From NCBI GenBank assembly GCA_964291405.2, contig OZ219926.1:4160001-4224000 (forward strand): a stretch of 64,000 nt of DNA, in the 5' to 3' direction. Numbering within the stretch: the first letter of the stretch is position 1; each line of letters starts with the position of its first letter. This DNA comes from Thermodesulfobacteriota bacterium. GTDB lineage: Bacteria > Desulfobacterota > Binatia > Bin18. Of this stretch, positions 11,111 through 54,481 are shown one piece after another. A program made the translations under genes and the position numbers. Below the pieces are notes generated by a model. The model had not been told where the DNA came from, searched no databases, and saw nothing but the letters and a program-made list of their open reading frames with translations.

Positions 11111-11249
11111 TCCTTTTCGTGTCTACACGTCCTGAGAGAGGGGTTTTCCGAGTGGGGGACCGCCCACCCTGGGGGATTGCAGAAATATCTAGAACAGGTA
11201 AGGCTTGCAGACGGACGACGAATTCACGACGGAAGAAGGAGAAGGATTC

Positions 11250-12104
11250 ATGCACAAAACATTCACATCTCGGTTTCTCCACTGCTGCATCGCTCTGAGT
11301 ATTGGCCTGCTCTTCGCCGGTCAGGCCCGTGCCGACCATCACGCCGCGGCAGAAGGCGTCGATCCTGCCCTGCAAGCCGCCATTGACGGGGAACATCGCT
11401 CGGCCGAGCACAAGGCACGCGACCAATACCGCCATCCCGCGCAAACCCTGACCTGGATGGGGCTCAAGCCGGATATGACGGTGGTCGAAATCTCACCGTC
11501 AAGAGGCTGGTACACCGAGATTCTGGCTCCCTATCTGAAAGACCAGGGGAGCTTCTATCTGGCCGGGTTCGATAGGGAATCAGAGGTTGCGTACATGAAG
11601 CGGCTGAACGCCCTCTTGGACGAGAAACTGGCTGCTAATCCCGAGGTGTACGGTACGCCAACAGTGACTGAACTCGCCCCGCCCAACAAGGTTGATATTG
11701 CCCCCGCAGGCTCGGCGGACATGGTGCTGACCTTCCGCAACGTCCACAACTGGATGAGCGCCGGGACGGCCGACGGGGTTTTTGCCGCCATGTATGCAGC
11801 GCTCAAGCCGGGCGGGATTCTCGGTCTGGTGGAGCACCGGGCCGATCCCAACACGGAACAGGACCCCAAGGCGTCTTCGGGTTATGTCACCGAGGCAGAG
11901 ACCGTTCGAATGGCAGAAAAAGCGGGCTTCAAGCTCGTGGACCAGACTGAGATCAACGCCAATCCGAAAGATACACGCGATCATCCTAAAGGCGTGTGGA
12001 CCCTGCCACCCGCTCTCAGTCTCGGAGACGAGGACAGGGAAAAGTATCTGGCGATTGGAGAGAGCGACCGTATGACGCTCAAGTTCAAGAAGCCGGCGGA
12101 GTGA
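11250..12104 (+). CDS. Secreted predicted SAM-dependent methyltransferase (COG4798-like)
   Basis: Signal peptide ending in ARA; RDQYRHP, VVEISPSRGWYT, LTFRNVHNW, WTLPP, IGESDRMTLKF. Confidence 0.85.
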   Translation: MHKTFTSRFLHCCIALSIGLLFAGQARADHHAAAEGVDPALQAAIDGEHRSAEHKARDQYRHPAQTLTWMGLKPDMTVVEISPSRGWYTEILAPYLKDQGSFYLAGFDRESEVAYMKRLNALLDEKLAANPEVYGTPTVTELAPPNKVDIAPAGSADMVLTFRNVHNWMSAGTADGVFAAMYAALKPGGILGLVEHRADPNTEQDPKASSGYVTEAETVRMAEKAGFKLVDQTEINANPKDTRDHPKGVWTLPPALSLGDEDREKYLAIGESDRMTLKFKKPAE

Positions 12105-20578: not shown

Positions 20579-20941
20579 CTATGAAGAAGTGGGCGAAGCC
20601 GGGCGGATGCGTAATCTGCCTGGCTCGGCGGTAATGATCGCTCCAGCTTCCAGATCCGTACCGTGCGTAGCGAGTACTTGAATACAGGCTGCTGCTTGTT
20701 GACGTGCCGAGAGATTGACAAGGCGAAGAATGCCTGAGTGGCGCTGGCCGCGGACAATAACAAGTTCGCCAAAGTCCTTGTCTAAGGTCACGAGGATACG
20801 ACGGTCATGGAAAGCTCGACTGAGAATTTCTTCATCGCCTGGGTCTTCATCCCACTCGCCCGCCCACAAGACATCATGGCCAGCGGCTCTCATATCCTGG
20901 CGGACTCCGCCCCAGACACAGCTATCAAGCAGAAGCCTCAC
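20579..20941 (-). CDS. DUF5615-family PIN-like toxin
   Basis: LLLDSC, DEEIL, ILVTLDKDFGEL, HSGIL; GTGA overlap with the DUF433 gene. Confidence 0.88.
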   Translation of the reverse strand: MRLLLDSCVWGGVRQDMRAAGHDVLWAGEWDEDPGDEEILSRAFHDRRILVTLDKDFGELVIVRGQRHSGILRLVNLSARQQAAACIQVLATHGTDLEAGAIITAEPGRLRIRPASPTSS

Positions 20942-21189
20942 GAGGGGGGTTTAATAAAGAATGGCTCGACGCGTTCATGACTAACGAGCTGTCGCGCATA
21001 GAGGAGGCAAGCCTGGATATCTTCCGGCTCAAGCCAGGAATAGCCTGAAAGTATGGTATCGGCGGTATCTCCCGCTGCCAGCATACCGAGAACATGTTCG
21101 ACTGCGAGCCTTCGTCCTCGGACAATGGGCTTGCCGCCGAAGATTTTCGGATCGATAGTAATGCGTTCGAGCAGCTTGGCCTCATTCAT
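20938..21189 (-). CDS. DUF433-family antitoxin
   Basis: RITIDPKIFGGKPIVRGRRL...LEPEDIQACLLYA. Confidence 0.92.
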   Translation of the reverse strand: MNEAKLLERITIDPKIFGGKPIVRGRRLAVEHVLGMLAAGDTADTILSGYSWLEPEDIQACLLYARQLVSHERVEPFFIKPPS

Positions 21190-21301: not shown

Positions 21302-22336
21302 ATGGACAAACACATACCCCCAACCGACCCGGCTGAAGCTGCGGCCTGGGTTGAGTTCTATTACCAGCAGGGCTGGAGTGACGGGTTGCCGCTTGTCCCG
21401 CCAACCGAAGAGTCGGTCCGGGCGATGCTGGAGGCCGGACAGGTCAAGGCGGAGGAGAATCTGGGGACTATTGCGGAACGGAACGTGACCATCCCGGCTG
21501 AGAAGGTAGCCATCAACGCGGTGATGGCCGGCTGTTTGCCCGAGTATTTCCCCGTTGTGCTGGCTGCGGTGCGGGGCCTGTGCCGACCCGAGTTTCACTA
21601 TCACAATCCGGCAACCAGCACCGGCGGGTCGGCGCTTACCCTGATCGTGAACGGCCCGATTGGTCCCACGCTCGGGATCAACGCGACCCATAACGCCTTT
21701 GGGCCGGGATTTCGTCCCAATGCAACCATCGGTCGGGCGCTCCGTCTGGTCATGCTTAACGTGCTCAATACCCGCCCTGGCCTGCTGGATAAGGCCACTT
21801 TGGGCTCACCGGGGAAATATGCGTTCTGTTTTGCCGAGAATGAAGAAAACCATCCCTGGCAGCCGCTCCACGTTGAACGCGGCTTTCGACCCGAGGACAG
21901 TACGGTGACGTTGTACGCGTCCAATACGCTCATGGGGGTGTATAACCAGTTGGCCAGCACGCCCGAGCCTCTGCTGCTGGAATTTGCCGATGCTGTGTGT
22001 AATCTCGCCTCGCCAAACGTATACGGGTTTAATCAGAGCCTGCTGGTGCTCGCCGGCGAGCATGCCGAAATCATCAAACACAGCGGCTGGAGCCGGCGAC
22101 AGGTCCAGGAGCGGGTGATTCAGCAGGCGCGACGGAGTGTGGCGGATTTCAAACGGGCCGGACGTCTGCCGGGGGAGATTAGTCCCGAAGATGCAACAAC
22201 GTGGCGCTATGTCATGCGTGACCCAGATGATGTGTTGATTGTCTGCGCGGGAGCCCAGGGCGGGAGTTGGTCGGCGTGCTTACCAGGCTGGGGGAATAAG
22301 TGGACGCGTAGCGTGACCGAACTGGTGCGGGTGTAA
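21302..22336 (+). CDS. Conserved protein of the family typically encoded next to UGSC (seleno)proteins
   Basis: GWSDGLPLVPPT, KVAINAVMAGCLPEYFP, NATIGRALRL, FAENEE, PLHVERG. Confidence 0.75.
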   Translation: MDKHIPPTDPAEAAAWVEFYYQQGWSDGLPLVPPTEESVRAMLEAGQVKAEENLGTIAERNVTIPAEKVAINAVMAGCLPEYFPVVLAAVRGLCRPEFHYHNPATSTGGSALTLIVNGPIGPTLGINATHNAFGPGFRPNATIGRALRLVMLNVLNTRPGLLDKATLGSPGKYAFCFAENEENHPWQPLHVERGFRPEDSTVTLYASNTLMGVYNQLASTPEPLLLEFADAVCNLASPNVYGFNQSLLVLAGEHAEIIKHSGWSRRQVQERVIQQARRSVADFKRAGRLPGEISPEDATTWRYVMRDPDDVLIVCAGAQGGSWSACLPGWGNKWTRSVTELVRV

Positions 22337-22360
22337 CTGGGACATAAAGGAGGAAGACGA

Positions 22361-22903
22361 ATGCATCGTACGGTTTTTGATCCGACTCTCCCCTTGGAAA
22401 CCCAGGAATTTGTGTATGCGCAGCGACCCGGCTCGTTCCGGGGGCTGCGGGTTGGAGTGGTTGAAAACACCAAATTCAATTCCAAGGAGTTGCTGTGCAA
22501 GGTGGCCGAGCGGCTGGAGCGGCAGCACGGCATACGCCTGGTATCCGTGAATCGTAAGCAGTCATCCGGCCATACCGTCAGCCAAGAAACGATTTCGCTG
22601 TTTCGGCAACAGGTCGATATTGTGCTGGCCGGCGTAGGTGATTGAGGGTCGTGCAGTTCGAGCAGTGTGCTCGACGGACTGAAATTGGAGCGAGCTGGTG
22701 TCCCCACTGCGGCTATCGTCACCACACCCTTTATTGCCACCGGCCGCGCTATGGCCGCCAGTTGGGGGGTCAAGGACTACCGGTTTCTGGTGACTGCCCA
22801 CCCCATCGCCAACCTGACAGAAGACGAGTTGGACACCCGGGCGGACGAACTGGCGGCACAAGTGCTAGACTTTTTTCAAAGCGCCGGTTCTGCTTCGGAT
22901 TGA
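22361..22903 (+). CDS. UGSC-family selenoprotein (180 aa; Sec encoded by TGA 22643-22645)
   Basis: ORFs 22361-22645 and 22667-22903 are in the same frame and read VLAGVGD-TGA-GSCSSSSVLDGLKLERAGVPT (UxxC). A SECIS-like hairpin follows; AAGGAGG RBS at the first ATG. Confidence 0.88.
22656..22675 (+). promoter_or_regulatory. Bacterial SECIS-like hairpin
   Basis: G-(bulged T)-TCGAGCA-GTG-TGCTCGA-C: a perfect 7-bp stem with a G-initiated loop separated from the TGA by 19 nt. Confidence 0.75.
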
Positions 22904-22990: not shown

Positions 22991-24145
22991 GTGTTTCAAA
23001 CCTCACGGCTACCGTATGCAGGGGCCATTGATGCCGATGGCCATATTAATGAACCCGCCGATCTGTGGGAGCGGTATATTGACCCGGAATATCGGGAGCA
23101 GGCCATCCGGATTCGGCCCGGCCCGGACGGGCTCGACCATCTGGAACTGAACGGCCAGCGTTCGCGCTATTTTGACGCGGAAATCCTGGCCCGTGGCACC
23201 AGCATGGGCAGCACATTTGAAGAGCGTACCGGCATTAAGCAACAGGGCTACACCAAAAGCGTCCCCTTTGGAGGAAACGATCCTCAAGAACGCCTGGCCC
23301 TACTCGATCAGGAAAACCTGGCCAAAGCGCTGATCTATCCAACGATCTGTCTGGAATGGGAAACAGAAGTCACCGACCATGATCTGGCCCAGGCCTACAC
23401 CCGCGCCTATAACCGCTGGATCGTGGATTTTTGTTCCGATTCCGGTGGCCGGCTGATTCCGATCGCCCATATCTGTCTCACTTCAGGTGAAGCTGCGGCT
23501 CAGGAACTGGAACGGGCCGTCAAAGCCGGGGCCAAGGGTGCTTTTGTCTCACCTTATACGCTGACCGACAAAGCTCATGGGCATAAGGATCACGATCCGT
23601 TCTGGGCTATGGCCCAGGACCTGGATGTCCCGATCGGGATTCATCCGGTGGCCGAGCCGCCGAACCGCCGCGTCTACCAGCGCTTTCGGGAGATGTATAA
23701 ATGGGGCGAGTGGTGGGTGGACATGCTGGGCGGCCAGGGTCCCCAGCAGGCCTTCTTGGGCCTGTTCCAATACGGTCTGTTCGACCGTTTTCCCACCGTA
23801 AAGGTTGTCGTGCTCGAATCCGGAGCGGGCTGGATCGGGCATATGCTCGACCGCATGGACGCCGCGTATAAGACCGCCCTTGGCAGAAGCGTCCCGCTCA
23901 AAGAAGTCCCGAGCTACTACTTCCAGCGCCAGTGTTGGATATCGGCCGACCCGGATGAGCGTGCTCTGCCATACCTGATTGAGTATATCGGCGCGGACAA
24001 GTTTTTCTGGGCGAGTGATTTCCCCCACGACGATCATACCTGCGACTATATTAAAGACCTGACGAAGATGGTGGAGCCGCTGTCTGAAGAGAGTCGGCGG
24101 AAAGTCCTGGGTGAGAATGTAGCCGGCGTGTACGGGCTGTCCTGA
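22991..24145 (+). CDS. Amidohydrolase_2 family metal-dependent hydrolase
   Basis: IDADGHINEP, YNRWIVDFC, PIGIH, LESGAGW, WASDFPH; GTG start with GGAGG RBS. Confidence 0.9.
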   Translation: MFQTSRLPYAGAIDADGHINEPADLWERYIDPEYREQAIRIRPGPDGLDHLELNGQRSRYFDAEILARGTSMGSTFEERTGIKQQGYTKSVPFGGNDPQERLALLDQENLAKALIYPTICLEWETEVTDHDLAQAYTRAYNRWIVDFCSDSGGRLIPIAHICLTSGEAAAQELERAVKAGAKGAFVSPYTLTDKAHGHKDHDPFWAMAQDLDVPIGIHPVAEPPNRRVYQRFREMYKWGEWWVDMLGGQGPQQAFLGLFQYGLFDRFPTVKVVVLESGAGWIGHMLDRMDAAYKTALGRSVPLKEVPSYYFQRQCWISADPDERALPYLIEYIGADKFFWASDFPHDDHTCDYIKDLTKMVEPLSEESRRKVLGENVAGVYGLS

Positions 24146-24197
24146 CCCCAAGCGCACCTCTGTACACAGAAACGAATAACCAAAAAAGGAGTAGGTT

Positions 24198-25316
24198 ATG
24201 CAATTCGGTATGCTGTACGAAATGGAAACGCCCCGCCCGTGGAACAAGCTGAGTGAGTACAACGTCTACCACGAAGCCCTGGCCCAGATCGAACGGGCCG
24301 ACCAGGTTGGCTTTGACTATGTGTGGGAGGTTGAGCATCATTTTCTGGAGGAATACTCCCACAGCCCGGCCCCCGAGGTGTTCTACGGGGCGGTCTCGCA
24401 GCGCACCAAGAACATCCGTATCGCCCACGGCGTGCGCCTCCTGCCGCACCGCTTCAACCACCCCATCAAGGTGGCGGAACAGGCCGCCGTGCTCGACATT
24501 CTGAGCAACGGGCGGATGGACCTGGGTACGGGGCGGTCAACCACGGCCCAGGAGCTGGACGGATTTGGGGTGGATTACGATCGGACGCGTGAAGAGGTGC
24601 GTGAGGCCCTCGATGTGATCGTGAAAGCCTGGACCGAAGAAATCCTGGAATACAACGGTAAAACTATTCAGGTCCCGCCCCGGCGGGTCGTGCCCAAGCC
24701 CATTCAAGAGCCACATCCGCCGATGTGGATGGCCTGCGTAGCACCGGACAGCTATGAGATGGCTGCCGACCGCGGCCTCGGTGTGCTCAGCTTCAATCTG
24801 AACTGGGAACAGGTCCAGAAGACCATGGACACCTACCGGGAGAAGTGTAAAGACCGCAGCGACGTGGTGTCGCAGGTGATCAACGAGCGGTTTGCCGGGG
24901 TGGCCATCTGTCATGTGGCCGAGAACAAAGAGGAAGAGGCGATCGGCATCGACGGGGCACGTTGGTTTCTGCACAACGTGGCCAAGCTGTTTGAGCCCCT
25001 GATGGTCAAGAACAATCTGTACTCATACGAATATCTGCGCACCCTGTTCGACCTGGAAGCGGATGCCAACGATTTGAGCGACGCGCAGATCAAAGAGCAC
25101 CCCATGGTCACGGTCGGCAATCCGGATGAGGTCAACCGCAAGCTCGAAAACTTTGACCAGGCCGGTCTGGATCAGGTGATTTTCTTCAAGCAGGCCGGTC
25201 GGATTCCGCACAAGAACATCATGCGCTCGATTAATCGGATCGGGCAGTATGTGATTCCGTATTTTAATCCGCATAAAGCGGGACCGACTGAGGAGACGCT
25301 GTTCTCAGCAAAATAA
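24198..25316 (+). CDS. LLM-class flavin-dependent monooxygenase
   Basis: WEVEHHFLEEYSHSPAP, NHPIKVAE, LSNGRMDLGTGRS, PKPIQEPHPP. Confidence 0.9.
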   Translation: MQFGMLYEMETPRPWNKLSEYNVYHEALAQIERADQVGFDYVWEVEHHFLEEYSHSPAPEVFYGAVSQRTKNIRIAHGVRLLPHRFNHPIKVAEQAAVLDILSNGRMDLGTGRSTTAQELDGFGVDYDRTREEVREALDVIVKAWTEEILEYNGKTIQVPPRRVVPKPIQEPHPPMWMACVAPDSYEMAADRGLGVLSFNLNWEQVQKTMDTYREKCKDRSDVVSQVINERFAGVAICHVAENKEEEAIGIDGARWFLHNVAKLFEPLMVKNNLYSYEYLRTLFDLEADANDLSDAQIKEHPMVTVGNPDEVNRKLENFDQAGLDQVIFFKQAGRIPHKNIMRSINRIGQYVIPYFNPHKAGPTEETLFSAK

Positions 25317-25342
25317 GGCTGCCGCACAAGGAGAAGTCATAC

Positions 25343-26446
25343 ATGCTCAAGCCCATTATCTCTTCCGATTCGCATATTACCGAACCACCAGGCACCTATG
25401 TGGATCGCATTGACAAGAAGTACAGAGATACCGCGCCGCACATGATTCACGACGAGAAGAAGGGTGATCTATTCGTCATCAGCGGCATGAAGCAGCCGGT
25501 CCCCATGGGGCTGGTTGCCGCAGCCGGACAGAAGGCTGAAGACCTTGCCATGTTCGGTGCCAAGTTTGAGGACTTGCACCGGGGCGGCTGGGACCCGGAA
25601 GCACGTCTGGCCGACCAGGACCGGGACGGCGTGGCTGCCGAGGTGATCTATCCCACCGTGGGGATGCTGCTGTGTAATCACTCCGACTTTGACTACAAGA
25701 AGGCCTGCTTTGACGCCTATAACGAATGGATCGCGGAATACTGCTCCGCCCATCCGGACCGCCTGCTCGGCCTGGGCCAGACCGCCATGCGCTCGGTCGA
25801 TGAGGGCATAGACGATCTGCGCAAGATCAAAGAGCTGGGTCTGCGCGGGGTGATGATGCCGGGCAACCCCCAGGTGTCCGATTACGACGACCCGCTCTAT
25901 GACGTGTTCTGGCAGGCTGCCATCGATATGCAGATGCCGCTGAGTTTTCACATTCTCACCAGCCGGAGCGATGTGGTCGGTTCCTCTCCACGCGGGCCCA
26001 AGCTGAACGGCTTCCTGTCTATTATTCGGGGCAACCAGGACCTGATGGGGACGTTTATTCTGGGTGGCGTGTTTGAACGTAACCCCAAACTGAAAATCGT
26101 GTGTGTCGAAGCCGACGCCGGCTGGGTGCCGCACTACATGTACCGCATGGATCATGCCTACGATCGGCACCGCTACTGGCTGAAACCCGGCCAGGAACTG
26201 TCAAAGATGCCGAGCGAGTATTTCAGCGAGCATATCTACACGACCTTTCAGGACGACTGGGTGGCGTTCCGGATGAAAGATATGTGCAACCCGCGCCGTC
26301 TGATGTGGGCCAACGACTTCCCGCACAGCGACTCGACCTGGCCGTGGTCACAGGAACTCCTGAAGGAGCATACGGCGCATCTCACGGAAGAAGAGAAGAA
26401 CTGGATTCTTCACGACAACGTGGCCGAGCTGTATAACCTGGACTAA
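25343..26446 (+). CDS. Amidohydrolase_2 family metal-dependent hydrolase
   Basis: SSDSHITEP, DQDRDGVAAEVIYPT, LSFH, VEADAGW, WANDFPHSDSTWP. Confidence 0.9.
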   Translation: MLKPIISSDSHITEPPGTYVDRIDKKYRDTAPHMIHDEKKGDLFVISGMKQPVPMGLVAAAGQKAEDLAMFGAKFEDLHRGGWDPEARLADQDRDGVAAEVIYPTVGMLLCNHSDFDYKKACFDAYNEWIAEYCSAHPDRLLGLGQTAMRSVDEGIDDLRKIKELGLRGVMMPGNPQVSDYDDPLYDVFWQAAIDMQMPLSFHILTSRSDVVGSSPRGPKLNGFLSIIRGNQDLMGTFILGGVFERNPKLKIVCVEADAGWVPHYMYRMDHAYDRHRYWLKPGQELSKMPSEYFSEHIYTTFQDDWVAFRMKDMCNPRRLMWANDFPHSDSTWPWSQELLKEHTAHLTEEEKNWILHDNVAELYNLD

Positions 26447-26469
26447 AAGACTGGCGAGCGTACAAACCG

Positions 26470-26497
26470 GGGCGTCCAAAACGGACGCCCTTTTTTT
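26470..26497 (+). terminator. Rho-independent terminator
   Basis: GGGCGTCC-AAAAC-GGACGCCC followed by T7. Confidence 0.88.
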
Positions 26498-26536
26498 GTC
26501 GCCTTCCGGGGTCGGATCGTGGAGGGCAAGCCGCTC

Positions 26537-26960: not shown

Positions 26961-27542
26961 ATGGAGAACACAAAGGACGCGGGGAACAGACAGGAGCCTG
27001 AGGGCGTCATTGACCTCAGACAAGAGTTGATTGACCTGTATGCCAGCGAACAAATGCTGGCGTTCTTTGAGTTCACGCTTGAGCGCCCTGGAAACGAGGC
27101 GCTTTCCGGGCTGTGCCGCATTGCCCAGCCAAAGCCCCACCGCTCGACGCTACGCTATCTCTCCCTCATTTTTCTGGTTGACACCCATGACTCCGCAACC
27201 CGACTCGTCGTCCAGAAAGCCCTGGCCCGGCTTGAGGGCAACGCCCTGAAAACAGCCGTGCCCGGCATGACGGACGGCGCTATCATCTCAAGCCTGAATT
27301 CCAGCACCGAGAACTATATCGCCCAGACGGACCTGCTGCTGGAAAGCGCGGTGAACAAGGCATTCATCACGACCCAACTCATTCCTGCCATCGCCCGCAT
27401 CGCCCAGTTCCACCTGACTCACATTGAGTGGTGGGAGGAGAGCCGCAGTATGGCTTCCCCCCCAGCCGACACGCCATCCGCGCCGTCCTCCTTGCTGGCT
27501 ACGGTCCGGGACTGGTTTCGGCGAAGTACCGAGCGCCGCTAG
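26961..27542 (+). CDS. Hypothetical protein
   Basis: A 193-aa ATG ORF fills the gap; TATAAT lies upstream at 26888; no family recognised. Confidence 0.6.
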   Translation: MENTKDAGNRQEPEGVIDLRQELIDLYASEQMLAFFEFTLERPGNEALSGLCRIAQPKPHRSTLRYLSLIFLVDTHDSATRLVVQKALARLEGNALKTAVPGMTDGAIISSLNSSTENYIAQTDLLLESAVNKAFITTQLIPAIARIAQFHLTHIEWWEESRSMASPPADTPSAPSSLLATVRDWFRRSTERR

Positions 27543-28128: not shown

Positions 28129-29451
28129 ATGAATCTTTTCCTCATTTTTCAGTACGGCCTTATCGGCGCGTTTGTCGCCCTGTTGGCGACTTTCCTGTTG
28201 GTCATGGTCTCCGACAGTGTGGAAGGGCATGTTTCCCACCTTTTGGGTTTATACACGAAAAACCCAATCCTGAAATTTCTCGGCATCGGCATGGGCGGCG
28301 TGCTGCTCGCTCTGCAAGCCTTGATGTCTTACAAACGGGCCAAGGCACTGGAGGACACCGCGAACGCCCAGGCTGAAGCAGCGAAGGCACAGGCCAAGGC
28401 CACGGAGGAACAGGCAAAGGCCAACGAGAATACCGAACAGGGGCAGCGGCAGGAACGCCTGAAAAACGCCATAGAGCATCTTGGACACGCCTCGGACTCC
28501 GTGCGTTTGGGCGGGGCTTATGAACTGTTCCATCTGGCGCAAGATACGAAAGACTTGCGTCAGACTGTCCTGGACATTCTCTGCGCCCATATCCGACGGA
28601 CGACGGGCGAGGCTGCGTATCGGGAAAAGTATAAGTTCGAACCTTCAGAAGAAGTCCAAAGCTTATTGACCCTGCTGTTCGTGCAGGAGCGTGAAATCTT
28701 CAAAGGTCTCCGTATCAACCTGAAGGGAAGCTGGCTGAATGGGGCTGATCTCAGAGAAGCACGTTTAGCCAGAGCCATTCTGACCAATGCGTATCTGCAA
28801 AGAGCCCTGCTTCAAGGGGCGCACCTGCAAAGGACCGGCCTTGCCGTGGCGCACCTAGAAGAAGCAGTTCTCACCAAGGCTTGGCTACACGGAGCCGATC
28901 TTCTTGAGACATACATGCAAGGAGCTGCTCTTCAATCTGTGCGGTTGTATGGAGCTGATCTTCGTGGGGTGAAAATGCAAGGAGCTTATCTACCCGACGC
29001 GCATCTGCAGGGAGCCTTTCTTCAGTCTGTGTCGCTGGAGGGGGCGACCCTTTCGAGGGCCCGTCTACAAGGAACTGGTATTTCCTTCATATATCTGCAA
29101 GGAGCCTCTCTTAATGAGGCGAAGCTGCACGGGGCAGGAACTGATAATTGGTCTTCTTCGATGCCTTTTGCAGAGCGCATCAAGAGGTCAATTGGCAAAG
29201 AAAGTAATCTGTCGAGCGTATTTTTTGGAGGTATAGGCCGGGGAGGTGTAGACCTCCTTGTCGAAGGCTTGTCTGATAAAAAAGCAAGAATACTTCGAGA
29301 GATACTGAGGCCACATATTGACCAGCCAGTAAGCCACGAATTACCGGAAAATAGCGGTGCCATCACCGGAGCCTACACAGCCAAAGAAGCAGAACAATGG
29401 ATTGCCGAATACAACGAAGCCATGTCAGAAGTACCTGAGGGCGATAGCTGA
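28129..29451 (+). CDS. Membrane-anchored pentapeptide-repeat protein
   Basis: Two N-terminal TM helices, a coiled coil, AIEHLG..SVRLGGAYEL, then about 25-30 A(D/H)Lxx pentapeptides. Confidence 0.88.
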   Translation: MNLFLIFQYGLIGAFVALLATFLLVMVSDSVEGHVSHLLGLYTKNPILKFLGIGMGGVLLALQALMSYKRAKALEDTANAQAEAAKAQAKATEEQAKANENTEQGQRQERLKNAIEHLGHASDSVRLGGAYELFHLAQDTKDLRQTVLDILCAHIRRTTGEAAYREKYKFEPSEEVQSLLTLLFVQEREIFKGLRINLKGSWLNGADLREARLARAILTNAYLQRALLQGAHLQRTGLAVAHLEEAVLTKAWLHGADLLETYMQGAALQSVRLYGADLRGVKMQGAYLPDAHLQGAFLQSVSLEGATLSRARLQGTGISFIYLQGASLNEAKLHGAGTDNWSSSMPFAERIKRSIGKESNLSSVFFGGIGRGGVDLLVEGLSDKKARILREILRPHIDQPVSHELPENSGAITGAYTAKEAEQWIAEYNEAMSEVPEGDS

Positions 29452-30986
29452 TGCCCACCCTCCACTGGCTCACCCGAGACAAAGACCTCCGCACCGCCTC
29501 CTGCGTGCCGTATCGGCTGTTGGAAGAAGCGCCTGACCTGTCGGCAGGGGAACCGGACACGAGCAATATCCTGATTCAGGGCGACAACCTGGAAGCGCTC
29601 AAGGCGTTGCTGCCGTTCTACGCCGGGCGGGTGAAGTGCATCTATATCGACCCGCCGTACAACACGCACTCCGCCTTCGAGCATTACGACGACAGCCTCG
29701 AACACACGCAATGGCTGGCGATGATGTGGCCACGCCTCGAATTATTGAGAGAGTTCATGACGGATGAAGGGTCAATCTGGATCAATATTGACGATGACGA
29801 GGGACACTATCTCAAGATCATTGCTGACGAAATCTATGGCCGAAGAAATTTCATCGTTAACTGTCTTTGGCAAAAGAGAACGTCGCCCGACGGAAGGATA
29901 AATATGGGCGATGCTCATGACCATATCTTTGTCTATGGCAGTCAGACGACAAGAGACAGTTTCAACAACCTGGCATTAACGGAGGAACAGCGGAGTTTGT
30001 ACAAGAACCCTGATAACGACTTACGTGGCCCGTGGGTTTCTACGGACTTCACTGCTCAGGGTTGGCGGCCGAATCAGATGTATGAAATCGTCACTCCCGC
30101 CGGCGTGCGATATTCTCCACCAGAGGGCCGGTGTTGGGCTAATGTCGAAGAGAATTTTACCCGTCTGCGTAATCAAGGGCGGATATGGTTTGGAAAGGAT
30201 GGCAGCTCTCGGCCACGTGTAAAAAACTATCTGTCGGAGGCAGAAGGGGTGAAATCCTGGAGTTGGTGGGCCAACAGAGAAGTTGGTCATAATCAGGAAG
30301 CCAAGAAAGAAATCAACGCTCTGTTTGGGGCATTGAACGCCTTCGACACTCCAAAACCCGAACGTCTCATCCAACGTATTCTTCACATTGCCACCAACCC
30401 CGGCGACCTGATACTCGACTCCTTCCTCGGCTCCGGTACCACGGCGGCAGTCGCCCACAAGATGGGCAGGCGCTACATCGGCATTGAGATGGGCGAGCAC
30501 GCGGTGACGCATTGCGTACCCCGCTTGCGAAAGGTCATTGACGGCGAGCAGGGCGGCATCTCAAAAAGTGTCGGTTGGCAGGGTGGGGGCGGGTTCCGTT
30601 TCTACCGGCTCGGGCCACCGGTGTTTGATGAGGAGGGACAGATTCGAGCGGACATTCGCTTTCCGGTGCTGGCTGCCCATGTCTGGTTCAGCGAGACCGG
30701 GCGTCCGTGGAATGGGAGCGGGGATTCGCCCTTCCTGGGTCTGCACGACGGCCACGCCTATGCGCTGCTGTACAACGGCATCCTGGGCGATAGGCGCCCG
30801 AATGGTGGCAACGTGCTGACACGGGCCACACTTGCTACGATTCGGGAAGAGATTGCGCGCAAGCATGCGCGTTTCAACGGGCCGATGACGGTCTATGGCG
30901 AACAGTCGCGCCTGGCCTCTGCTACTTTGGAGCGGGACGGCATTACCTTCAAGCAAATGCCGTATGATGTGAAGGCAAGAACCTGA
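29451..30986 (+). CDS. mod: Type III R-M modification methyltransferase (beta class)
   Basis: LIQGDNLEALK, YIDPPYN, central TRD, TPKPERL, DSFLGSGTT. Confidence 0.92.
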   Translation: MPTLHWLTRDKDLRTASCVPYRLLEEAPDLSAGEPDTSNILIQGDNLEALKALLPFYAGRVKCIYIDPPYNTHSAFEHYDDSLEHTQWLAMMWPRLELLREFMTDEGSIWINIDDDEGHYLKIIADEIYGRRNFIVNCLWQKRTSPDGRINMGDAHDHIFVYGSQTTRDSFNNLALTEEQRSLYKNPDNDLRGPWVSTDFTAQGWRPNQMYEIVTPAGVRYSPPEGRCWANVEENFTRLRNQGRIWFGKDGSSRPRVKNYLSEAEGVKSWSWWANREVGHNQEAKKEINALFGALNAFDTPKPERLIQRILHIATNPGDLILDSFLGSGTTAAVAHKMGRRYIGIEMGEHAVTHCVPRLRKVIDGEQGGISKSVGWQGGGGFRFYRLGPPVFDEEGQIRADIRFPVLAAHVWFSETGRPWNGSGDSPFLGLHDGHAYALLYNGILGDRRPNGGNVLTRATLATIREEIARKHARFNGPMTVYGEQSRLASATLERDGITFKQMPYDVKART

Positions 30987-31054
30987 TTGGTTGACGAGCG
31001 TCAGGACAGTTTGTACCTGATTGTCAGATCATGACTCCACAGGAGGACAGAGGA

Positions 31055-31246
31055 ATGCAGCAGACCTTTCGAGTGAAAGCTGTGTGGGACGCTGAGGCAG
31101 AAGTGTTCTACTCTGAAAGCGATATCGAGGGCTTGCACATTGAGGCGGCTACCCTTCGACTCTGCTCAGGACAGGCCCTGGATGAATTTGAAGCAATCAT
31201 GCTGGACGCAGCGCCTGAACTCATCATGGTGAACCATCGTACTTGA
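31055..31246 (+). CDS. DUF1902 (HicB-like) protein with an in-frame 8-aa repeat-derived insertion; possibly truncated at the C-terminus
   Basis: VKAVWDAEAEVFYSESDIEGLHIEAAT[LRLCSGQA]LDEFE...PELI..NH. Confidence 0.75.
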   Translation: MQQTFRVKAVWDAEAEVFYSESDIEGLHIEAATLRLCSGQALDEFEAIMLDAAPELIMVNHRT

Positions 31247-31253
31247 GAGGGCA

Positions 31254-31363
31254 GGTCCTTCGACTTCGCTTGCGCTACGCTCAGGACGAATGGGTGCTTA
31301 GGACCGCCGGTCATGCTGAGCGTAGCCCCGGAGGGGCGAAGTCGAAGCACGCTCAGGACGAAC
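31254..31363. repeat. Inverted doublet of CTTCGACTTCGC-x-GCTACGCTCAG repeats upstream of the GIY-YIG gene
   Basis: Forward unit 31254-31290, reverse unit 31311-31350, partial GCTCAGGACGAAC at 31351-31363. Confidence 0.85.
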
Positions 31364-31380
31364 GTGTGGGCGAGGGTGCC

Positions 31381-31677
31381 ATGAGTTTCTGGGTCTACAT
31401 TTTACGCTGTGGAGACGGGTCCTATTACACCGGTCATACGGATGATCTTGAACGCCGTCTTCACCAACATCAGGCCGGGACTTTCGGGGGATACACTTCG
31501 TCCCGGAAACCATTATCCTTGGTCTATTCCTGTCCATTCCCGTCGAGGGAAGAGGCCATGCGAGCGGAACGGCAGATTAAAGGTTGGAGTCGAAAGAAGA
31601 AAGAGGCCATGCTGCGCGGAGACTGGACTGCGGTCAATCGGTTGTCTCGTGGGAAACATAGGCATCAACGGTCGTAA
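31381..31677 (+). CDS. Small GIY-YIG nuclease (YhbQ/UPF0213-like)
   Basis: WVYILRCGDGSYYTGHTDDLERRLHQH...AERQIKGWSRKKK. Confidence 0.92.
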   Translation: MSFWVYILRCGDGSYYTGHTDDLERRLHQHQAGTFGGYTSSRKPLSLVYSCPFPSREEAMRAERQIKGWSRKKKEAMLRGDWTAVNRLSRGKHRHQRS

Positions 31678-31678
31678 T

Positions 31679-31863
31679 GGTCCTTCGACTTCGCTGACGC
31701 TACGCTCAGGACGAACGGCGGGGAGACCGTCGGTCCTGAGCGTAAGGCGCACCGCGCCTGAAGTCGAAGGGCGCTCAGGACGAACGGAACAAAGGCTATT
31801 GGTCCTGAACACCCGCCATTCATGCTGAGCGTAGCCCCAGAGGGGCGGAGTCGAAGCACGCTC
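31679..31863. repeat. Cluster of the same repeats downstream of the GIY-YIG gene
   Basis: Forward unit 31679-31718, reverse unit 31727-31772, partial unit 31773-31787, reverse unit 31819-31863. Confidence 0.85.
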
Positions 31864-31921
31864 GGGATAGGCACAGCACAAGCGCAAGCGAAGGACGAAC
31901 GGGTCTGGAAGAAGACGAGTC

Positions 31922-34549
31922 ATGCAACTGAAGCAGTATCAGGCCGATGCGCTGGCCGTTCTGCGCCGCTTCTTTGAAGAAGCCCGCATGGCCGGGCCGA
32001 GGAATGCCTACGAAACTATTACCAAAGAACCCGAATATGCGGACCGGCTCGGGCGCTATGGCGGAACGTATAGCGCCCCACTCACGGACCTGCCGAACAT
32101 GCCGTACGTCTGCCTGCGTCTGCCGACCGGCGGTGGCAAAACAATCCTGGGCGCTCACGCCGTTGCCGTAGCGCGTGATGCCTGGATAGAGAAAGACTAT
32201 CCGCTGGTCCTGTGGCTGGTGCCGACAAAGACGATTCGTTCGCAAACAGTCGAAGCCCTGAAGAACGCCGGCCACCCGTATCGGCAGGTTCTGGATGAAG
32301 ACTTTGACGGCCGGGTGCGCGTGTTCGATATTGCGGACTTTACCCATATTCGACCGCACGACCTGCGCGACCACTGCTGTATTATAGTCGGCACTATTCA
32401 GACATTGCGGGTGACGAACACCGAGGGCCGTAAGGTCTACGCCCACCACGAGGAAATGGAGCCGCATTTCTCCGGGGCCCAGAATGCTACGCCGGGCCTG
32501 GAGAAAATGGAGGGCGGCGTCAAGTTTTCCTTCGCCAACCTGCTGCACATCCACCGCCCGCTGATGATCGTGGATGAGGCCCACAACGCGGTAACCGGTC
32601 TGACTCGCGAGATGCAAACGCGGGTCAATCCGTGCGCGATTATCGAGTTCACCGCCACTCCTCAGCCCAAGTCGAATATCCTGTACAGCGTCTCCGCCCT
32701 GGAACTCAAACGCGAGGACATGATCAAGTTGCCGATCATGCTGTCCGAGCACGGCACCTGGCAAAACGCGGTCAACGGCGCGATTGCGAAGCGGGCGTCT
32801 CTGGCAGAAGCCGCCAAACGAGACGCCGCCTACCTCCGGCCCATCGTCCTGTTCCAGGCTCAGAAGAAAAATCAAGAAGTTACGGTCGAAGCGCTGAAAG
32901 AACATCTGACGGATGTTGAGCACATTCCCGCAAGCGTAATCGCCATTGCTACCGGCGACCAGCGGGAACTGGACGGTATCGACCTGTTCGATCCACATTG
33001 TCCGATTGAATACGTCATCACCGTCGAAGCCCTGAAAGAAGGCTGGGACTGTTCCTTCGCCTATGTGTTTTGCTCGGTCTCGCGTATTCACAGTGCGACA
33101 GATGTGGAACAGCTCTTGGGCCGCGTGCTGCGCATGCCCTACGCCAAGCGGCGTAAAGTTACCGATCTGAACAAGGCGTATGCCTACCTGTCCGAGCCGT
33201 CCTCGGGAGCATCCGCGCGGGCATTGACCGATAAGCTCGTTGCAATGGGATTTGAGGAAGATGAGGCGCGTGACAACATTGAGCCGGTACAGGGAGAGTT
33301 GGGAGGCGAGGACGGTCTTTTCGGTCTGCGCGACCAGCCGCCACCATCATTCCGGCATACGCTCTCGGTGACGCCAGAGGCGCTGTCAGCCTTGAAGCAG
33401 ACACAACGAGACGGTGTGACGGTGCGCGAGACTGGTGGCGGGAAAGTTGAGATCGAGATTGTTGGCCCTGTGGACGACGCTCTGGAAACGGTCATCCGTG
33501 CAGCGGTCCCGGAGGCGGAACATGGGCGGATTGATGAGTCCTTTGGGGAGTATCGGAAGCTTCTCTCGCCCGCCGAACGTGGTGAGAAGTTCGACGTGCC
33601 GCGTCTCATGGCGGAACTCCAAGGAGAGCTTGAGTTCGCCGATACCGACGTGTTCATGGAAGATCACGATTGGTCGCTGCTCAACCACTCGTCGCACTTG
33701 GATGAGCATGAATTTACGGTCCGTGAGACATCACGCAGTTTTGAGATCGACATTGACGGCAGGCACGTCACCTATCAGTTCGCCGGCGAGGAGGAGCAAC
33801 TCGCGCTGAACGTAGACGTAGCAGGCTGGACGCCTGAAGCTCTGGTGCTGTGGCTTGATCGACAGGTGCGTCAGCCCGACATCAGGCAGGGTGAATTGAT
33901 CAAATGGCTGTCCGAACTCGTTGGCCATCTAATAAACAGACGCGCCCTGCATATCGCTGCACTCATGCGGTGTAAGTTTATCCTGGCACGGAAGCTACGC
34001 GACAAAATTAGCGCCATTCGTCGGCAGGAACGAAAGAGTACCTATCAACAGCGTCTTTTTGCGCCAGAGGCAAAAGTCGAAATATCCTTCGACGATGCCT
34101 TCTCATTCAAGGCCGGGATGTATCAGGATCAGCGGCGATACCGGGGGCGCTGGGAGCCGGGGAAGCATTTTTTAGGTTCAGACCACGTTCCGGCTTTCGA
34201 CGGCGCGGACGATGGTGAAGAAGTCCAGTGCGCCCAGGAGCTCGACAGCCTGCCCGGCGTGAAATACTGGATTCGCAATGTAGCCCGCCACCCGGAGTCG
34301 TTCTGGCTGCCAACCGCAACGGACAAGTTTTACCCTGACCTCGTAGCACTGCTGAACGACGGACGGCTGCTCGTTGTCGAATATAAGGGGGCACATATCG
34401 CTGATGGAGCGGATACCGCAGAGAAACGGACCATCGGCGAACTGTGGCAACAAAAAAGCAACGGCAAGGGCCTTTTCCTCGTTGTTGAAAGACTCCTCAA
34501 CGGCCGGGACGTATACCAGCAGTTGATAGAGAAAACTGGTGCTACCTGA
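31922..34549 (+). CDS. res: Type III R-M restriction subunit (SF2 helicase + PD-(D/E)xK nuclease)
   Basis: LPTGGGKT, DEAH, LKEGWD, QLLGRVLR, C-terminal FYPDLV...VEYKG. Confidence 0.92.
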   Translation: MQLKQYQADALAVLRRFFEEARMAGPRNAYETITKEPEYADRLGRYGGTYSAPLTDLPNMPYVCLRLPTGGGKTILGAHAVAVARDAWIEKDYPLVLWLVPTKTIRSQTVEALKNAGHPYRQVLDEDFDGRVRVFDIADFTHIRPHDLRDHCCIIVGTIQTLRVTNTEGRKVYAHHEEMEPHFSGAQNATPGLEKMEGGVKFSFANLLHIHRPLMIVDEAHNAVTGLTREMQTRVNPCAIIEFTATPQPKSNILYSVSALELKREDMIKLPIMLSEHGTWQNAVNGAIAKRASLAEAAKRDAAYLRPIVLFQAQKKNQEVTVEALKEHLTDVEHIPASVIAIATGDQRELDGIDLFDPHCPIEYVITVEALKEGWDCSFAYVFCSVSRIHSATDVEQLLGRVLRMPYAKRRKVTDLNKAYAYLSEPSSGASARALTDKLVAMGFEEDEARDNIEPVQGELGGEDGLFGLRDQPPPSFRHTLSVTPEALSALKQTQRDGVTVRETGGGKVEIEIVGPVDDALETVIRAAVPEAEHGRIDESFGEYRKLLSPAERGEKFDVPRLMAELQGELEFADTDVFMEDHDWSLLNHSSHLDEHEFTVRETSRSFEIDIDGRHVTYQFAGEEEQLALNVDVAGWTPEALVLWLDRQVRQPDIRQGELIKWLSELVGHLINRRALHIAALMRCKFILARKLRDKISAIRRQERKSTYQQRLFAPEAKVEISFDDAFSFKAGMYQDQRRYRGRWEPGKHFLGSDHVPAFDGADDGEEVQCAQELDSLPGVKYWIRNVARHPESFWLPTATDKFYPDLVALLNDGRLLVVEYKGAHIADGADTAEKRTIGELWQQKSNGKGLFLVVERLLNGRDVYQQLIEKTGAT

Positions 34550-36205: not shown

Positions 36206-36640
36206 TTACCTGTTGGTTGTTATAAAAGGATTGCGAACCCTCACACTCCCGTACATGCGCGTATGCTGAAAGTCTTCGGAGAGGATTTCGGTCAGTCCGT
36301 AGACTTCCGCGTAGGCCCACAGGTGGGCATCAAACCAGGATAAACCGTACGCTGCCGCACCCCGTAAGGCGGTCCGCAACACAGCTTCATTGGGATAAAG
36401 GGCTCTAAACTGAGCCAGCATTTCTTCTGCCTCGCGTCGCGCATCCGCTGGCTCCAGGAGTTGGACTTCGGGTCTGCCGCGGGTCGTTGCCGTAACGAAC
36501 TCGACAATGGCCTGACTCGGTACTCTGAATACGTTGGATTTGATGCCTTGGCGTAGAATGTCGGTCACAATCCGCTGCTTTTCCGGAAAGCGAGCGTCGT
36601 AACGATAGACCAGGATATTGGTATCAATGAGGACGGGCAC
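36206..36640 (-). CDS. PIN-domain (VapC-like) toxin
   Basis: LIDTNILVY, QAIVEF, LSWFDAHLWAYA, ILSEDF, VRNPF. The GTG start overlaps the antitoxin end. Confidence 0.9.
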   Translation of the reverse strand: MPVLIDTNILVYRYDARFPEKQRIVTDILRQGIKSNVFRVPSQAIVEFVTATTRGRPEVQLLEPADARREAEEMLAQFRALYPNEAVLRTALRGAAAYGLSWFDAHLWAYAEVYGLTEILSEDFQHTRMYGSVRVRNPFITTNR

Positions 36641-36869
36641 GTTGGTACAGGTCTTCGCGCGTCCAGCCACGGCGGTGCGCCCGCTTACGAGGTTCTACCA
36701 GCGATTGGCTCTTACGCTGCCGTGTTGTTGCGGCATCGAACAACTCCAGACGTTCGTTTACGTTGAGCGCGGCGGTTGACATGCCTGTGGTCGGAGGTGG
36801 GACTTGAATGACATCTCCCTCGGCCTCAATAGGAACTCTCCCCCACAATTTACTCGTAATCTTCGCCAT
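36624..36869 (-). CDS. AbrB-type antitoxin with an apparently shortened DNA-binding domain
   Basis: MAKITSKL start and RGWTREDLY tail; the AbrB core looks internally deleted. Confidence 0.7.
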   Translation of the reverse strand: MAKITSKLWGRVPIEAEGDVIQVPPPTTGMSTAALNVNERLELFDAATTRQRKSQSLVEPRKRAHRRGWTREDLYQRARPH

Positions 36870-40380: not shown

Positions 40381-40890
40381 TTATATGGGTTTGTTCTTAA
40401 TCTGCATGGCCACGAGTGTTTCGTCTGTTTTTTCAAACAGGAGTTGGAGCGCGGTTTCCGTATCAAAGGCATGTGGCGCTTCGAGCCGGGCACCTAGGGC
40501 GGCTTTCAGAAATGGGTAGTCGGCTACCCAGGTAGTGAGCTGGGGTGGCTGCTGCTCTTCGGACTGTTGCGCGTGCCACTCCAGCACTGTGTCCGCAACT
40601 TGCAGATAGGCCATGATGGTGTTGACGTACGGCCGCATTTCGTGGGGCGTCTCCTCCATCTTTTGCCGCACAAGCCTTTGAAACACCTGGAACTCGGCAT
40701 GGTAGGTCGGATAGTCCAGTCCGGCATACCCCAGGTCCAGCAACGGCCGGAGAGCGGCTGCTATGTCACGGTGTCCGGTCAGCGGCTGGTTGCGGAGTTG
40801 GTCACAGGAGAAGAGAAAAAGAAAGGCAAGGACGAACACACGCCAGACTATCCGATTCAAACCGACAGTAGGAGCGTTGAGGGCTATCAT
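40381..40890 (-). CDS. Hypothetical protein, putative lipoprotein
   Basis: Hydrophobic stretch ending LFLFSC; start uncertain. Confidence 0.55.
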   Translation of the reverse strand: MIALNAPTVGLNRIVWRVFVLAFLFLFSCDQLRNQPLTGHRDIAAALRPLLDLGYAGLDYPTYHAEFQVFQRLVRQKMEETPHEMRPYVNTIMAYLQVADTVLEWHAQQSEEQQPPQLTTWVADYPFLKAALGARLEAPHAFDTETALQLLFEKTDETLVAMQIKNKPI

Positions 40891-40957
40891 CGGTCTTGAA
40901 TGACAGGCTGGTGCTCGATTCCCCTGACTTCCATCACTGCTCATGAGGGGCAAGAGA

Positions 40958-54321: not shown

Positions 54322-54420
54322 AGTGTAAGGGAGCGGTGCATACATCGCCCCCTTAGCACTGACTCTAATGGGTCGGTGAGGATTGAAACCAACAGTATAA
54401 AAATACCTGCTGAAGAATTA

Positions 54421-54441
54421 TTGACTTCCTAAAAAAGTCAA
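54421..54441. promoter_or_regulatory. Palindromic operator candidate TTGACTT-N7-AAGTCAA overlapping a -35-like TTGACT
   Basis: Perfect 7-bp inverted repeat in an AT-rich intergenic region 40 bp upstream of the DUF1329 start. Confidence 0.45.
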
Positions 54442-54481
54442 CTAAAAATAGAGCGGTAATTTTTCTTAATGAGGAGGATTT

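Follow-up and report, generated by a model that had tools for sequence, protein, structure and literature searches.

A UGSC-family gene with a probable selenocysteine codon and its upstream partner in a Binatia genome

What does a TGA codon mean when it stands in the middle of an otherwise open gene, and what would the full-length product do next to the gene that precedes it? This question is raised by a two-gene locus in a 64,000-nucleotide stretch of contig OZ219926.1 (assembly GCA_964291405.2, a Thermodesulfobacteriota bacterium of the Binatia), hereafter the window, to whose positions all coordinates refer unless a locus is named. By sequence, the second gene of the locus is a genuine member of the known UGSC selenoprotein family, and the comparative evidence indicates that its in-frame TGA (22643-22645) is very probably a real selenocysteine codon. 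The pair as a whole can with good probability be read as a two-component (seleno)thiol-driven reductase, in which UGSC feeds a reaction centred on the partner protein. The locus comprises the following elements.

21302..22336, forward strand: partner gene, 344 amino acids, of the 'Unknown_1' family of Zhang & Gladyshev 2008
22347..22353, forward strand: Shine–Dalgarno-like AAGGAGG, 7 nt 5′ of the UGSC start codon
22361..22903, forward strand: UGSC-family selenoprotein gene, 180 amino acids if the TGA at 22643-22645 is selenocysteine (U95), with its true stop at TGA 22901-22903
22643..22645, forward strand: in-frame TGA, the proposed selenocysteine codon (U95)
22652-22654, forward strand: codon of the resolving Cys98 of the UGSC gene
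22656..22675, forward strand: hairpin of the bacterial selenocysteine insertion sequence (SECIS) type, with a 7-bp stem of TCGAGCA (22658-22664) and TGCTCGA (22668-22674) and the loop GUG (22665-22667)

Read conventionally, the open reading frame (ORF) 22361..22645 encodes 94 amino acids and ends at the TGA, and the same frame is open on to TGA 22901-22903. Reading the internal TGA as selenocysteine (Sec, U) gives a 180-amino acid protein with the sequence ...LAGVGD-U-GSC-SSSSVLDG..., exactly the junction of two ORFs in one frame that had been claimed in a first-pass annotation of this DNA. The family named in that annotation is also recovered: the 180-residue product scores 138.4 bits with NCBIfam NF041046, 'UGSC family (seleno)protein', where 125 is the cut-off, and 183 bits with Pfam PF24696 (cut-off 25; E 7e-54). 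A single PF24696 match covers residues 5-172 and runs across the TGA. The protein shares with the family the U-G-S-C motif and the pattern of mostly Sec and rarely Cys, and no defining difference separates it from other members; it is a Binatia-type orthologue, 92% identical to locus L001 of the set described below.

The find is correct but not new. In the portions of the sources available, UGSC was described in 2007 as a selenoprotein whose function was not known, and Hyphomonas neptunium is named as a cultivable carrier (PMC1976440); the Global Ocean Sampling (GOS) data yielded 255 Sec and 21 Cys UGSC sequences, which placed it among the most abundant GOS selenoproteins, and it was the top selenoprotein family in several non-marine samples (PMC2398784). 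A 2026 review still lists it as functionally uncharacterised (PMC13188914). To the extent that these texts were accessible, the literature of 2007, 2008 and 2026 thus agrees with the first-pass description of a predicted selenoprotein family without an established function, and no function was reported in the part of the literature searched, which was a single library. A search on Binatia and selenocysteine found only unrelated papers. Publications on the family date back to 2007/2008, its companion was published as 'Unknown_1' and NCBI has a naming model for the read-through form; the window adds nothing on the existence of the family, and gives a clean example of its separate-gene form.

Relatives were gathered by a scan of genomes, one per species, in which 298 were found; the best 80 loci (numbered with the prefix L) were kept for locus counts. 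The top-scoring loci lie in metagenome-assembled genomes (MAGs) of Candidatus Binatia, with identities of up to 92%, and other loci are labelled Methylomirabilota/Rokubacteria, SAR324, Nitrospinota, Tectomicrobia, Burkholderiales and Dormibacterota, among others. The MAG labels of L016, L018, L061 and L067 (Enterobacteriaceae, Janthinobacterium lividum or Bordetella parapertussis) look doubtful, because their UGSC genes group with Binatia or Burkholderiales-type sequences.

The codon at the Sec site is TGA in 78 of these 80 loci and TGC in the remaining 2, with the frame kept on both sides. Similarly, among 15 public proteins of comparable length, Cys stands in the TGA column of every full-length homologue that extends over the site (14 of 14), so that the Cys expected here in homologues is present in both sets; the fifteenth protein, which is 85% identical, terminates at ...GVGD. 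The Cys homologues are single proteins of 176–187 amino acids. When the gene is compared with 20 Binatia relatives, substitutions at codon positions 1, 2 and 3 number 173, 111 and 503 after the TGA and 187, 164 and 499 before it, and this richness in third-position substitutions beyond the TGA indicates that the downstream stretch is translated in this frame.

TGA is the ordinary stop codon of 18 of the 40 Pfam-supported ORFs of the window, which argues for local recoding and not for an altered genetic code. Outside the called genes, other window TGAs with an open frame around them amount to a few ORF pairs at 31.0-31.9 kb and 62.2-64.0 kb, and the read-through candidates 62288-62788(+) and 62752-63318(-) gave no Pfam match. 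Gene callers that stop at TGA break the UGSC gene into 'hypotheticals' of 94 and 78 amino acids in many public records, as had been anticipated for standard annotation. Correspondingly, among 58 short public relatives of UGSC, the exact end is G-x-G-D in 23 and another 32 consist of the C-terminal piece, and some of these short pieces sit on megabase contigs.

The invariance of the hairpin at the nucleotide level across phyla provides strong and, on comparative grounds, decisive evidence for a putative SECIS element. The bacterial SECIS model, the consensus that underlies bSECISearch, has, as given in the accessible part of its description, a loop of 3-9 nt, an upper stem of 4-16 bp, a G in the first two loop positions that is usually followed by G or U, a UGA-to-loop distance of 16-37 nt and a folding energy of at most −7.5 kcal/mol (PMC13188914). 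The hairpin lies within all four published constraints, with a 3-nt loop that begins G-U, a 7-bp stem, 19 nt between UGA and loop (22646-22664) and an energy of −9.1 kcal/mol for its 20 nt (z −3.05); the UGA plus 40 nt folds at −12.4 kcal/mol. An outer pair, G22656–C22675, spans the bulged U22657 (T22657 in DNA). The first-pass annotation had recognised the bacterial SECIS geometry and had described the stem, the bulge and the G-first loop 19 nt downstream accurately; its placing of the hairpin 'right after' the TGA does not stand, as the hairpin starts 10-12 nt downstream.

In 75 distinct TGA-form sequences, third-position entropy is zero over the hairpin codons +5 to +10 (TCG, AGC/GGC, AGT, GTG, CTC and GAC), as against 0.8-1.8 bits for the flanking invariant Gly, Asp, Ser and Pro codons. 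Ser+5 is encoded by TCG in 74 of the 75 sequences, and Ser+7 (AGT), Val+8 (GTG), Leu+9 (CTC) and Asp+10 (GAC) keep a single codon in all of them, whereas four codons occur at Ser+2, three at Ser+4 and both Asp codons at Asp-1 and at Asp-9. Furthermore, the loop G-U-G is invariant in 69 aligned TGA-form sequences (67 distinct rows), and the core pairs are formed in 66-67 of the 67 rows. The sole variable stem base converts an A-U pair into G-U in 18 of the 67 rows, through a Ser-to-Gly replacement. The two Cys-form loci have other Ser codons, only an interrupted stem and a loop without G in its first two positions.

Like the bacterial coding-region SECIS of the Escherichia coli fdhF type, the element is a hairpin within the coding sequence past the UGA, with a small G-U loop, a 19-nt spacing and an energy below −7.5 kcal/mol. 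Its loop is at the minimum length of the model, 3 nt, and its near-identity in sequence across several phyla is unusual, given that bacterial SECIS elements generally have no common sequence, as far as the accessible part of the source states (PMC13188914). This sameness is due in part to the conserved peptide that the element encodes.

The second question, what the full-length protein does, is best approached through its partner. The partner stop and the UGSC start are separated by a 24-nt gap, and no promoter-like or terminator-like site was found between the two genes. In 77 of the 80 loci, the gene immediately 5′ of UGSC, in the same orientation, is a partner homologue, which often abuts or overlaps it, and the two proteins also occur fused in both orders; the 344-amino acid gene is indeed the usual companion that it had been taken for. 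The three non-adjacent loci are L030, which lies at a contig edge, L031, where a copy is found 2.6 kb away, and L073. The last (L073:5570-6100) is the only full-flank locus with a TGA-type UGSC but no partner homologue within 6 kb, and a long ORF ends just upstream of its UGSC gene. Two partner ORF matches lie within the flanks of each of L058, L076 and L078.

Long members of the partner family show what UGSC can be exchanged for. One set of 14 comprises 4 full UGSC–partner fusions, 4 pieces of such a fusion, severed at the Sec codon, 2 partner–UGSC fusions that end in ...GD and 4 proteins without UGSC. In a second set of 16, an N-terminal AhpC/TSA domain takes the place where UGSC would be in 5 members, with scores over the cut-off, and one more has a Redoxin match below threshold; one member has an N-terminal ferredoxin:thioredoxin reductase (FTR) beta domain, one is a UGSC–partner–FeThRed_B protein, one is a further UGSC fusion and no additional named domain is present in the others. 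The thioredoxin-like or peroxiredoxin-like (Trx/Prx-like) domains of such fusions contain DCPT[C/S] motifs, and tandem partner–partner proteins also occur in the family. The accessible part of the 2008 paper was found to make no mention of partner–UGSC, Trx/Prx-like or FTR-beta fusions, or of tandem partners (PMC2398784). Taken with the adjacency of the genes, the fusions suggest that UGSC binds the 344-amino acid partner, as in the two-subunit enzyme put forward in the first-pass annotation.

A second motif, P-G-C-[GAS]-[SA]-[KR], is present in 7 of 7 Trx/Prx-like–partner fusions (P0216, P0222, P0232, P0279, P0207, P0274 and P0233), about 95-125 residues past DCPT[C/S] and between the redox and partner domains; it recalls the C/U-G-S of UGSC. 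In L080, two modules stand in tandem (L080:3212-4519 and L080:4955-6522). The first partner copy has an N-terminal extension of about 90 amino acids and is preceded by an ORF for a UGSC N-terminal fragment, from which it is probably a Sec-type UGSC–partner fusion; the usual pair of separate partner and UGSC genes comes directly after it.

The partner is the real puzzle of the locus. It belongs to a very large unnamed family with a confidently predicted fold and no convincing relative of solved structure. The family numbers at least 8000 clusters at 90% identity and at least 4933 at 50% identity (E<=1e-3), and the source names seen in it are all 'hypothetical protein'. The partner protein itself has no Pfam or NCBIfam match; no Pfam match is common to 76 members of the family (0 of 76), in which a scan at E<=1 gave scattered single matches only. 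Its AlphaFold2 (AF2) model has a predicted local distance difference test score (pLDDT) of 95.1 and a predicted template modelling score (pTM) of 0.93. A sequence-profile search of the PDB gave 0 matches at E<=1, and in the ESM Atlas the matches were all unnamed clusters of this family, among them one with the automatic name 'Thioredoxin family protein'. Fumarate hydratase class I and Toblerone-fold hydrolases, the best PDB fold matches, were considered as relatives and rejected, with template modelling (TM) scores of only 0.20-0.29.

The partner contains the segments DGLPLVPPT and AVMAGC. Near-invariant positions include D27-G-L-P30, P33-P34, N72, A73, M75-A-G-C78, P80, P84 and G118-P119, together with R138, N140, R145, C176, E179 and W186, and C78 is conserved in at least 90% of the 76 members. 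Fig S1A of the 2008 paper shows a 'UGSC/Unknown_1 fusion' in an alignment with a V-M-A-G-C-x-P-E-Y...V-N-G-P block (PMC2398784). The A-[IV]-N-[AG]-V-M-A-G-C-x-P-E-Y-x-P ... V-N-G-P block of the published 'Unknown_1' is also present in the window partner; this partner is encoded by a separate gene upstream of UGSC, whereas in the published example UGSC is fused N-terminally (PMC2398784).

UGSC itself is modelled by AF2 (30 sequences, pLDDT 90.2) as an alternating β-α protein in which each of five strands is followed by a helix. U95 is placed directly after the strand 87-93, at the N-terminus of the helix 96-111. Its PDB fold matches are CheY receivers, SsuE/MsuE flavin mononucleotide reductases and TIR domains, with TM scores of 0.36-0.49, and its sequence profile matched nothing in the PDB above chance level (cysteine synthase, for instance, at E 0.49). 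A 'likely Trx-like fold' was suggested for UGSC in the portion of the 2008 paper available (PMC2398784). This suggestion is not borne out by the modelled fold and its matches: no thioredoxin-fold protein is among the 50 PDB fold matches listed, and none of 30 UGSC members has a match to a Trx-family Pfam hidden Markov model (HMM) at E<=1. UGSC does share with Trx-like and Prx-like UxxC/CxxC selenoproteins the position of its motif at a helix N-terminus after a β-strand, and in some partner-family proteins a CxxC/CxxS Trx/Prx-like domain takes the UGSC position, which implies an equivalent role.

A link to thiol redox chemistry also appears in the gene order. In 7 of the 80 loci (L047:6519-6977, L048, L052, L057, L058, L068 and L069), a gene for MsrB (Pfam SelR/MsrB, methionine-R-sulfoxide reductase) begins at the UGSC stop codon or overlaps with it; each of these loci has a Methylomirabilota or Rokubacteria label, and the overlap hints at a shared thiol-redox operon in these lineages. 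Together, the swaps with AhpC/TSA and FTR domains and the MsrB neighbours suggest that UGSC has a redox-relay role.

It is proposed that residue 95 becomes selenocysteine through SelB and tRNA-Sec, a step that is deduced from family membership and from the conserved coding-region SECIS past the UGA at 22643, and that would yield the 180-amino acid protein with U95-G-S-C98. Sec95 and Cys98 would alternate between selenol/thiol and selenenylsulfide states, handing two electrons to a reaction centred on partner Cys78, in which partner residues Cys176, R138, R145, N140 and E179 may also be involved. The oxidised U-x-x-C would then be re-reduced by cellular thiol systems of the thioredoxin or ferredoxin:thioredoxin-reductase type. 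The partner would be the catalytic, substrate-specific part of the enzyme, and its Trx/Prx-like and FTR-beta fusions suggest that it consumes thiol-delivered electrons. The conserved, Arg-rich site, together with the genes nearby, points to a substrate that would be small, probably carboxylate-bearing, and catabolic.

Several observations weigh against this reading or its premises. UGSC has many invariant polar residues around Sec (N36, K38, K66, D86, D94, D105, E110, H147 and N151), more than a simple electron carrier needs. The genes next to the pair outside Binatia are heterogeneous (CoA-transferase III, short-chain dehydrogenases/reductases (SDRs), amidohydrolases, SIS, α/β hydrolases and TctC), so no substrate can be named. 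At the RNA level, the 66-nt context around the hairpin folds like shuffled sequence (z 0.15) and the window holds 34 perfect 7-bp hairpins, which makes the hairpin alone weak evidence; none of 9 hairpin pairs has a compensatory two-sided change, so its structure is supported by conservation and not by covariation. In addition, no selA, selB, selD or tRNA-Sec lies within the 64-kb window: a tRNA scan of it found 0 genes, an Rfam scan at gathering thresholds 0 matches, and its 57 ORFs no SelA, SelB or SelD domain.

The polar residues favour a different account, in which UGSC would be more than an electron carrier: it would itself carry out catalysis, as the selenoprotein of an enzyme of reductive cleavage comparable to D-proline reductase (PrdA/PrdB) or glycine reductase (GrdE/GrdB). 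The partner would bind and activate the substrate, Sec95 would act as the nucleophile that breaks a C-N, C-O, C-S or C-X bond, and Cys98 would resolve the Se adduct. This account is unlikely, though it has a basis in profile searches. TIGR04483 (PrdB) is matched weakly by 10 of 30 UGSC members, and GrdB by 1 of 30; the best TIGR04483 match (E 3.9e-4) aligns residues 79-127 with profile positions 133-180, that is, with the strand–U-x-x-C–helix element, so that what UGSC has in common with PrdB and GrdB is a UxxC motif and a weak local similarity around it. PrdB is listed with a UxxC motif in the accessible part of the 2008 paper (PMC2398784). A further likeness is that PrdB and GrdB act together with a distinct subunit that binds the substrate. 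The conserved Arg, Asn, Glu and two Cys of the partner would suit such an enzyme, as would the catabolic neighbours (amidohydrolases, CoA-transferases, SDRs and luciferase-like monooxygenases).

However, the match to TIGR04483 reaches 19.9 bits where 300 is the cut-off, and UGSC is about 60 residues shorter than the profile. Pfam GRDB is matched by 0 of 30 members at E<=1, and searches of the PDB by sequence and by fold brought up no chain of PrdB or GrdB. PrdA and GrdE carry a pyruvoyl group formed by self-cleavage at a Cys. The UGSC partner shows no sign of a pyruvoyl group or of self-cleavage, with no direct comparison to PrdA or GrdE made, and by sequence search it is unrelated to any named family. 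In contrast to the PrdB and GrdB systems, moreover, the lineages that carry UGSC are mostly not amino-acid-fermenting anaerobes. The CxxC/CxxS Trx/Prx-like or FTR domains that replace UGSC in some proteins fit an exchangeable reductant better than a dedicated nucleophile.

A broader proposal, itself quite improbable, would make the partner the catalytic subunit of a huge modular reductase family of new fold, fed by UGSC, Trx/Prx-like or FTR modules, with PrdB-like reductive bond cleavage of small organic acids or amines by the Sec in the UGSC branch. If true, Stickland-type selenium chemistry would extend from fermenting clostridia to abundant soil and ocean lineages (Binatia, Methylomirabilota and SAR324).

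It is highly improbable that the hairpin is a by-product of the conserved peptide S-S-S-V-L-D, without RNA function, and that the UGA is read otherwise, as near-cognate Cys or Trp. The 3′ arm does encode the invariant V-L-D, its GTG CTC GAC is retained in both Cys-form loci, and the want of compensatory changes is what such a by-product would give. A peptide constraint would nevertheless have to fix the codons of Ser+5, Ser+7, Val+8, Leu+9 and Asp+10 while leaving those of Ser+2, Ser+4, Asp-1 and Asp-9 free; the single variable stem position moves from A-U to G-U, and the Cys forms, with their altered 5′-arm codons, lose the perfect stem and the G-first loop. Scarcely credible, finally, is a true stop at the TGA, in a broken gene or between two small genes (94 and 78 amino acids) with no selenoprotein: public gene calls hold exactly these two pieces (23 N-terminal and 32 C-terminal of 58), the 64-kb window lacks Sec machinery and TGA otherwise works as a stop there, but 78 of 80 loci, from several phyla, have this same TGA within a frame preserved to either side, one HMM match over residues 5-172 crosses it, the AF2 model puts it midway in one compact domain, the Cys homologues are single proteins of 176-187 amino acids and the hairpin is constrained at the nucleotide level.

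Downstream of the pair, the window continues with the following elements.

22991-24145, forward strand: Amidohydro_2 gene (Pfam)
24198-25316, forward strand: luciferase-like monooxygenase gene (Pfam)
25343-26446, forward strand: Amidohydro_2 gene (Pfam)
26469..26501, forward strand: terminator-like hairpin of 9 pairs (7 G-C) followed by a T run, a consensus match only

The three genes in 22991..26446 may be co-transcribed with the pair, and the terminator-like hairpin is likely, from its sequence, to mark the end of the transcription unit. This Amidohydro_2/luciferase-like/Amidohydro_2 context is conserved only among the Binatia relatives (L001-L020), and not in other phyla.

Directly upstream of the partner gene, and divergent from it, lie a DUF5615 (PIN-like) gene and an overlapping 86-amino acid ORF (20579-21185, reverse strand), which resemble a toxin–antitoxin pair. 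A second small toxin–antitoxin-like pair, a PIN-domain protein with an overlapping 81-amino acid ORF, is found at 36206-36869 on the reverse strand. Genes for a pentapeptide-repeat protein, an N6/N4 DNA methylase, a GIY-YIG nuclease-domain protein and a ResIII helicase stand in a row at 28129-34549 on the forward strand; this looks like a restriction–modification or defence island in an otherwise catabolic region. ORFs of 190-517 amino acids without a Pfam family are present at 11205-12104, 26961-27542, 40381-40953 and 54365-55918. The catabolic paralogues of the window include four luciferase-like monooxygenases, two Amidohydro_2 genes and two thiolase-like genes, and hydantoinase A/B sets, a molybdopterin dehydrogenase trio and a CoA-transferase III are also present.

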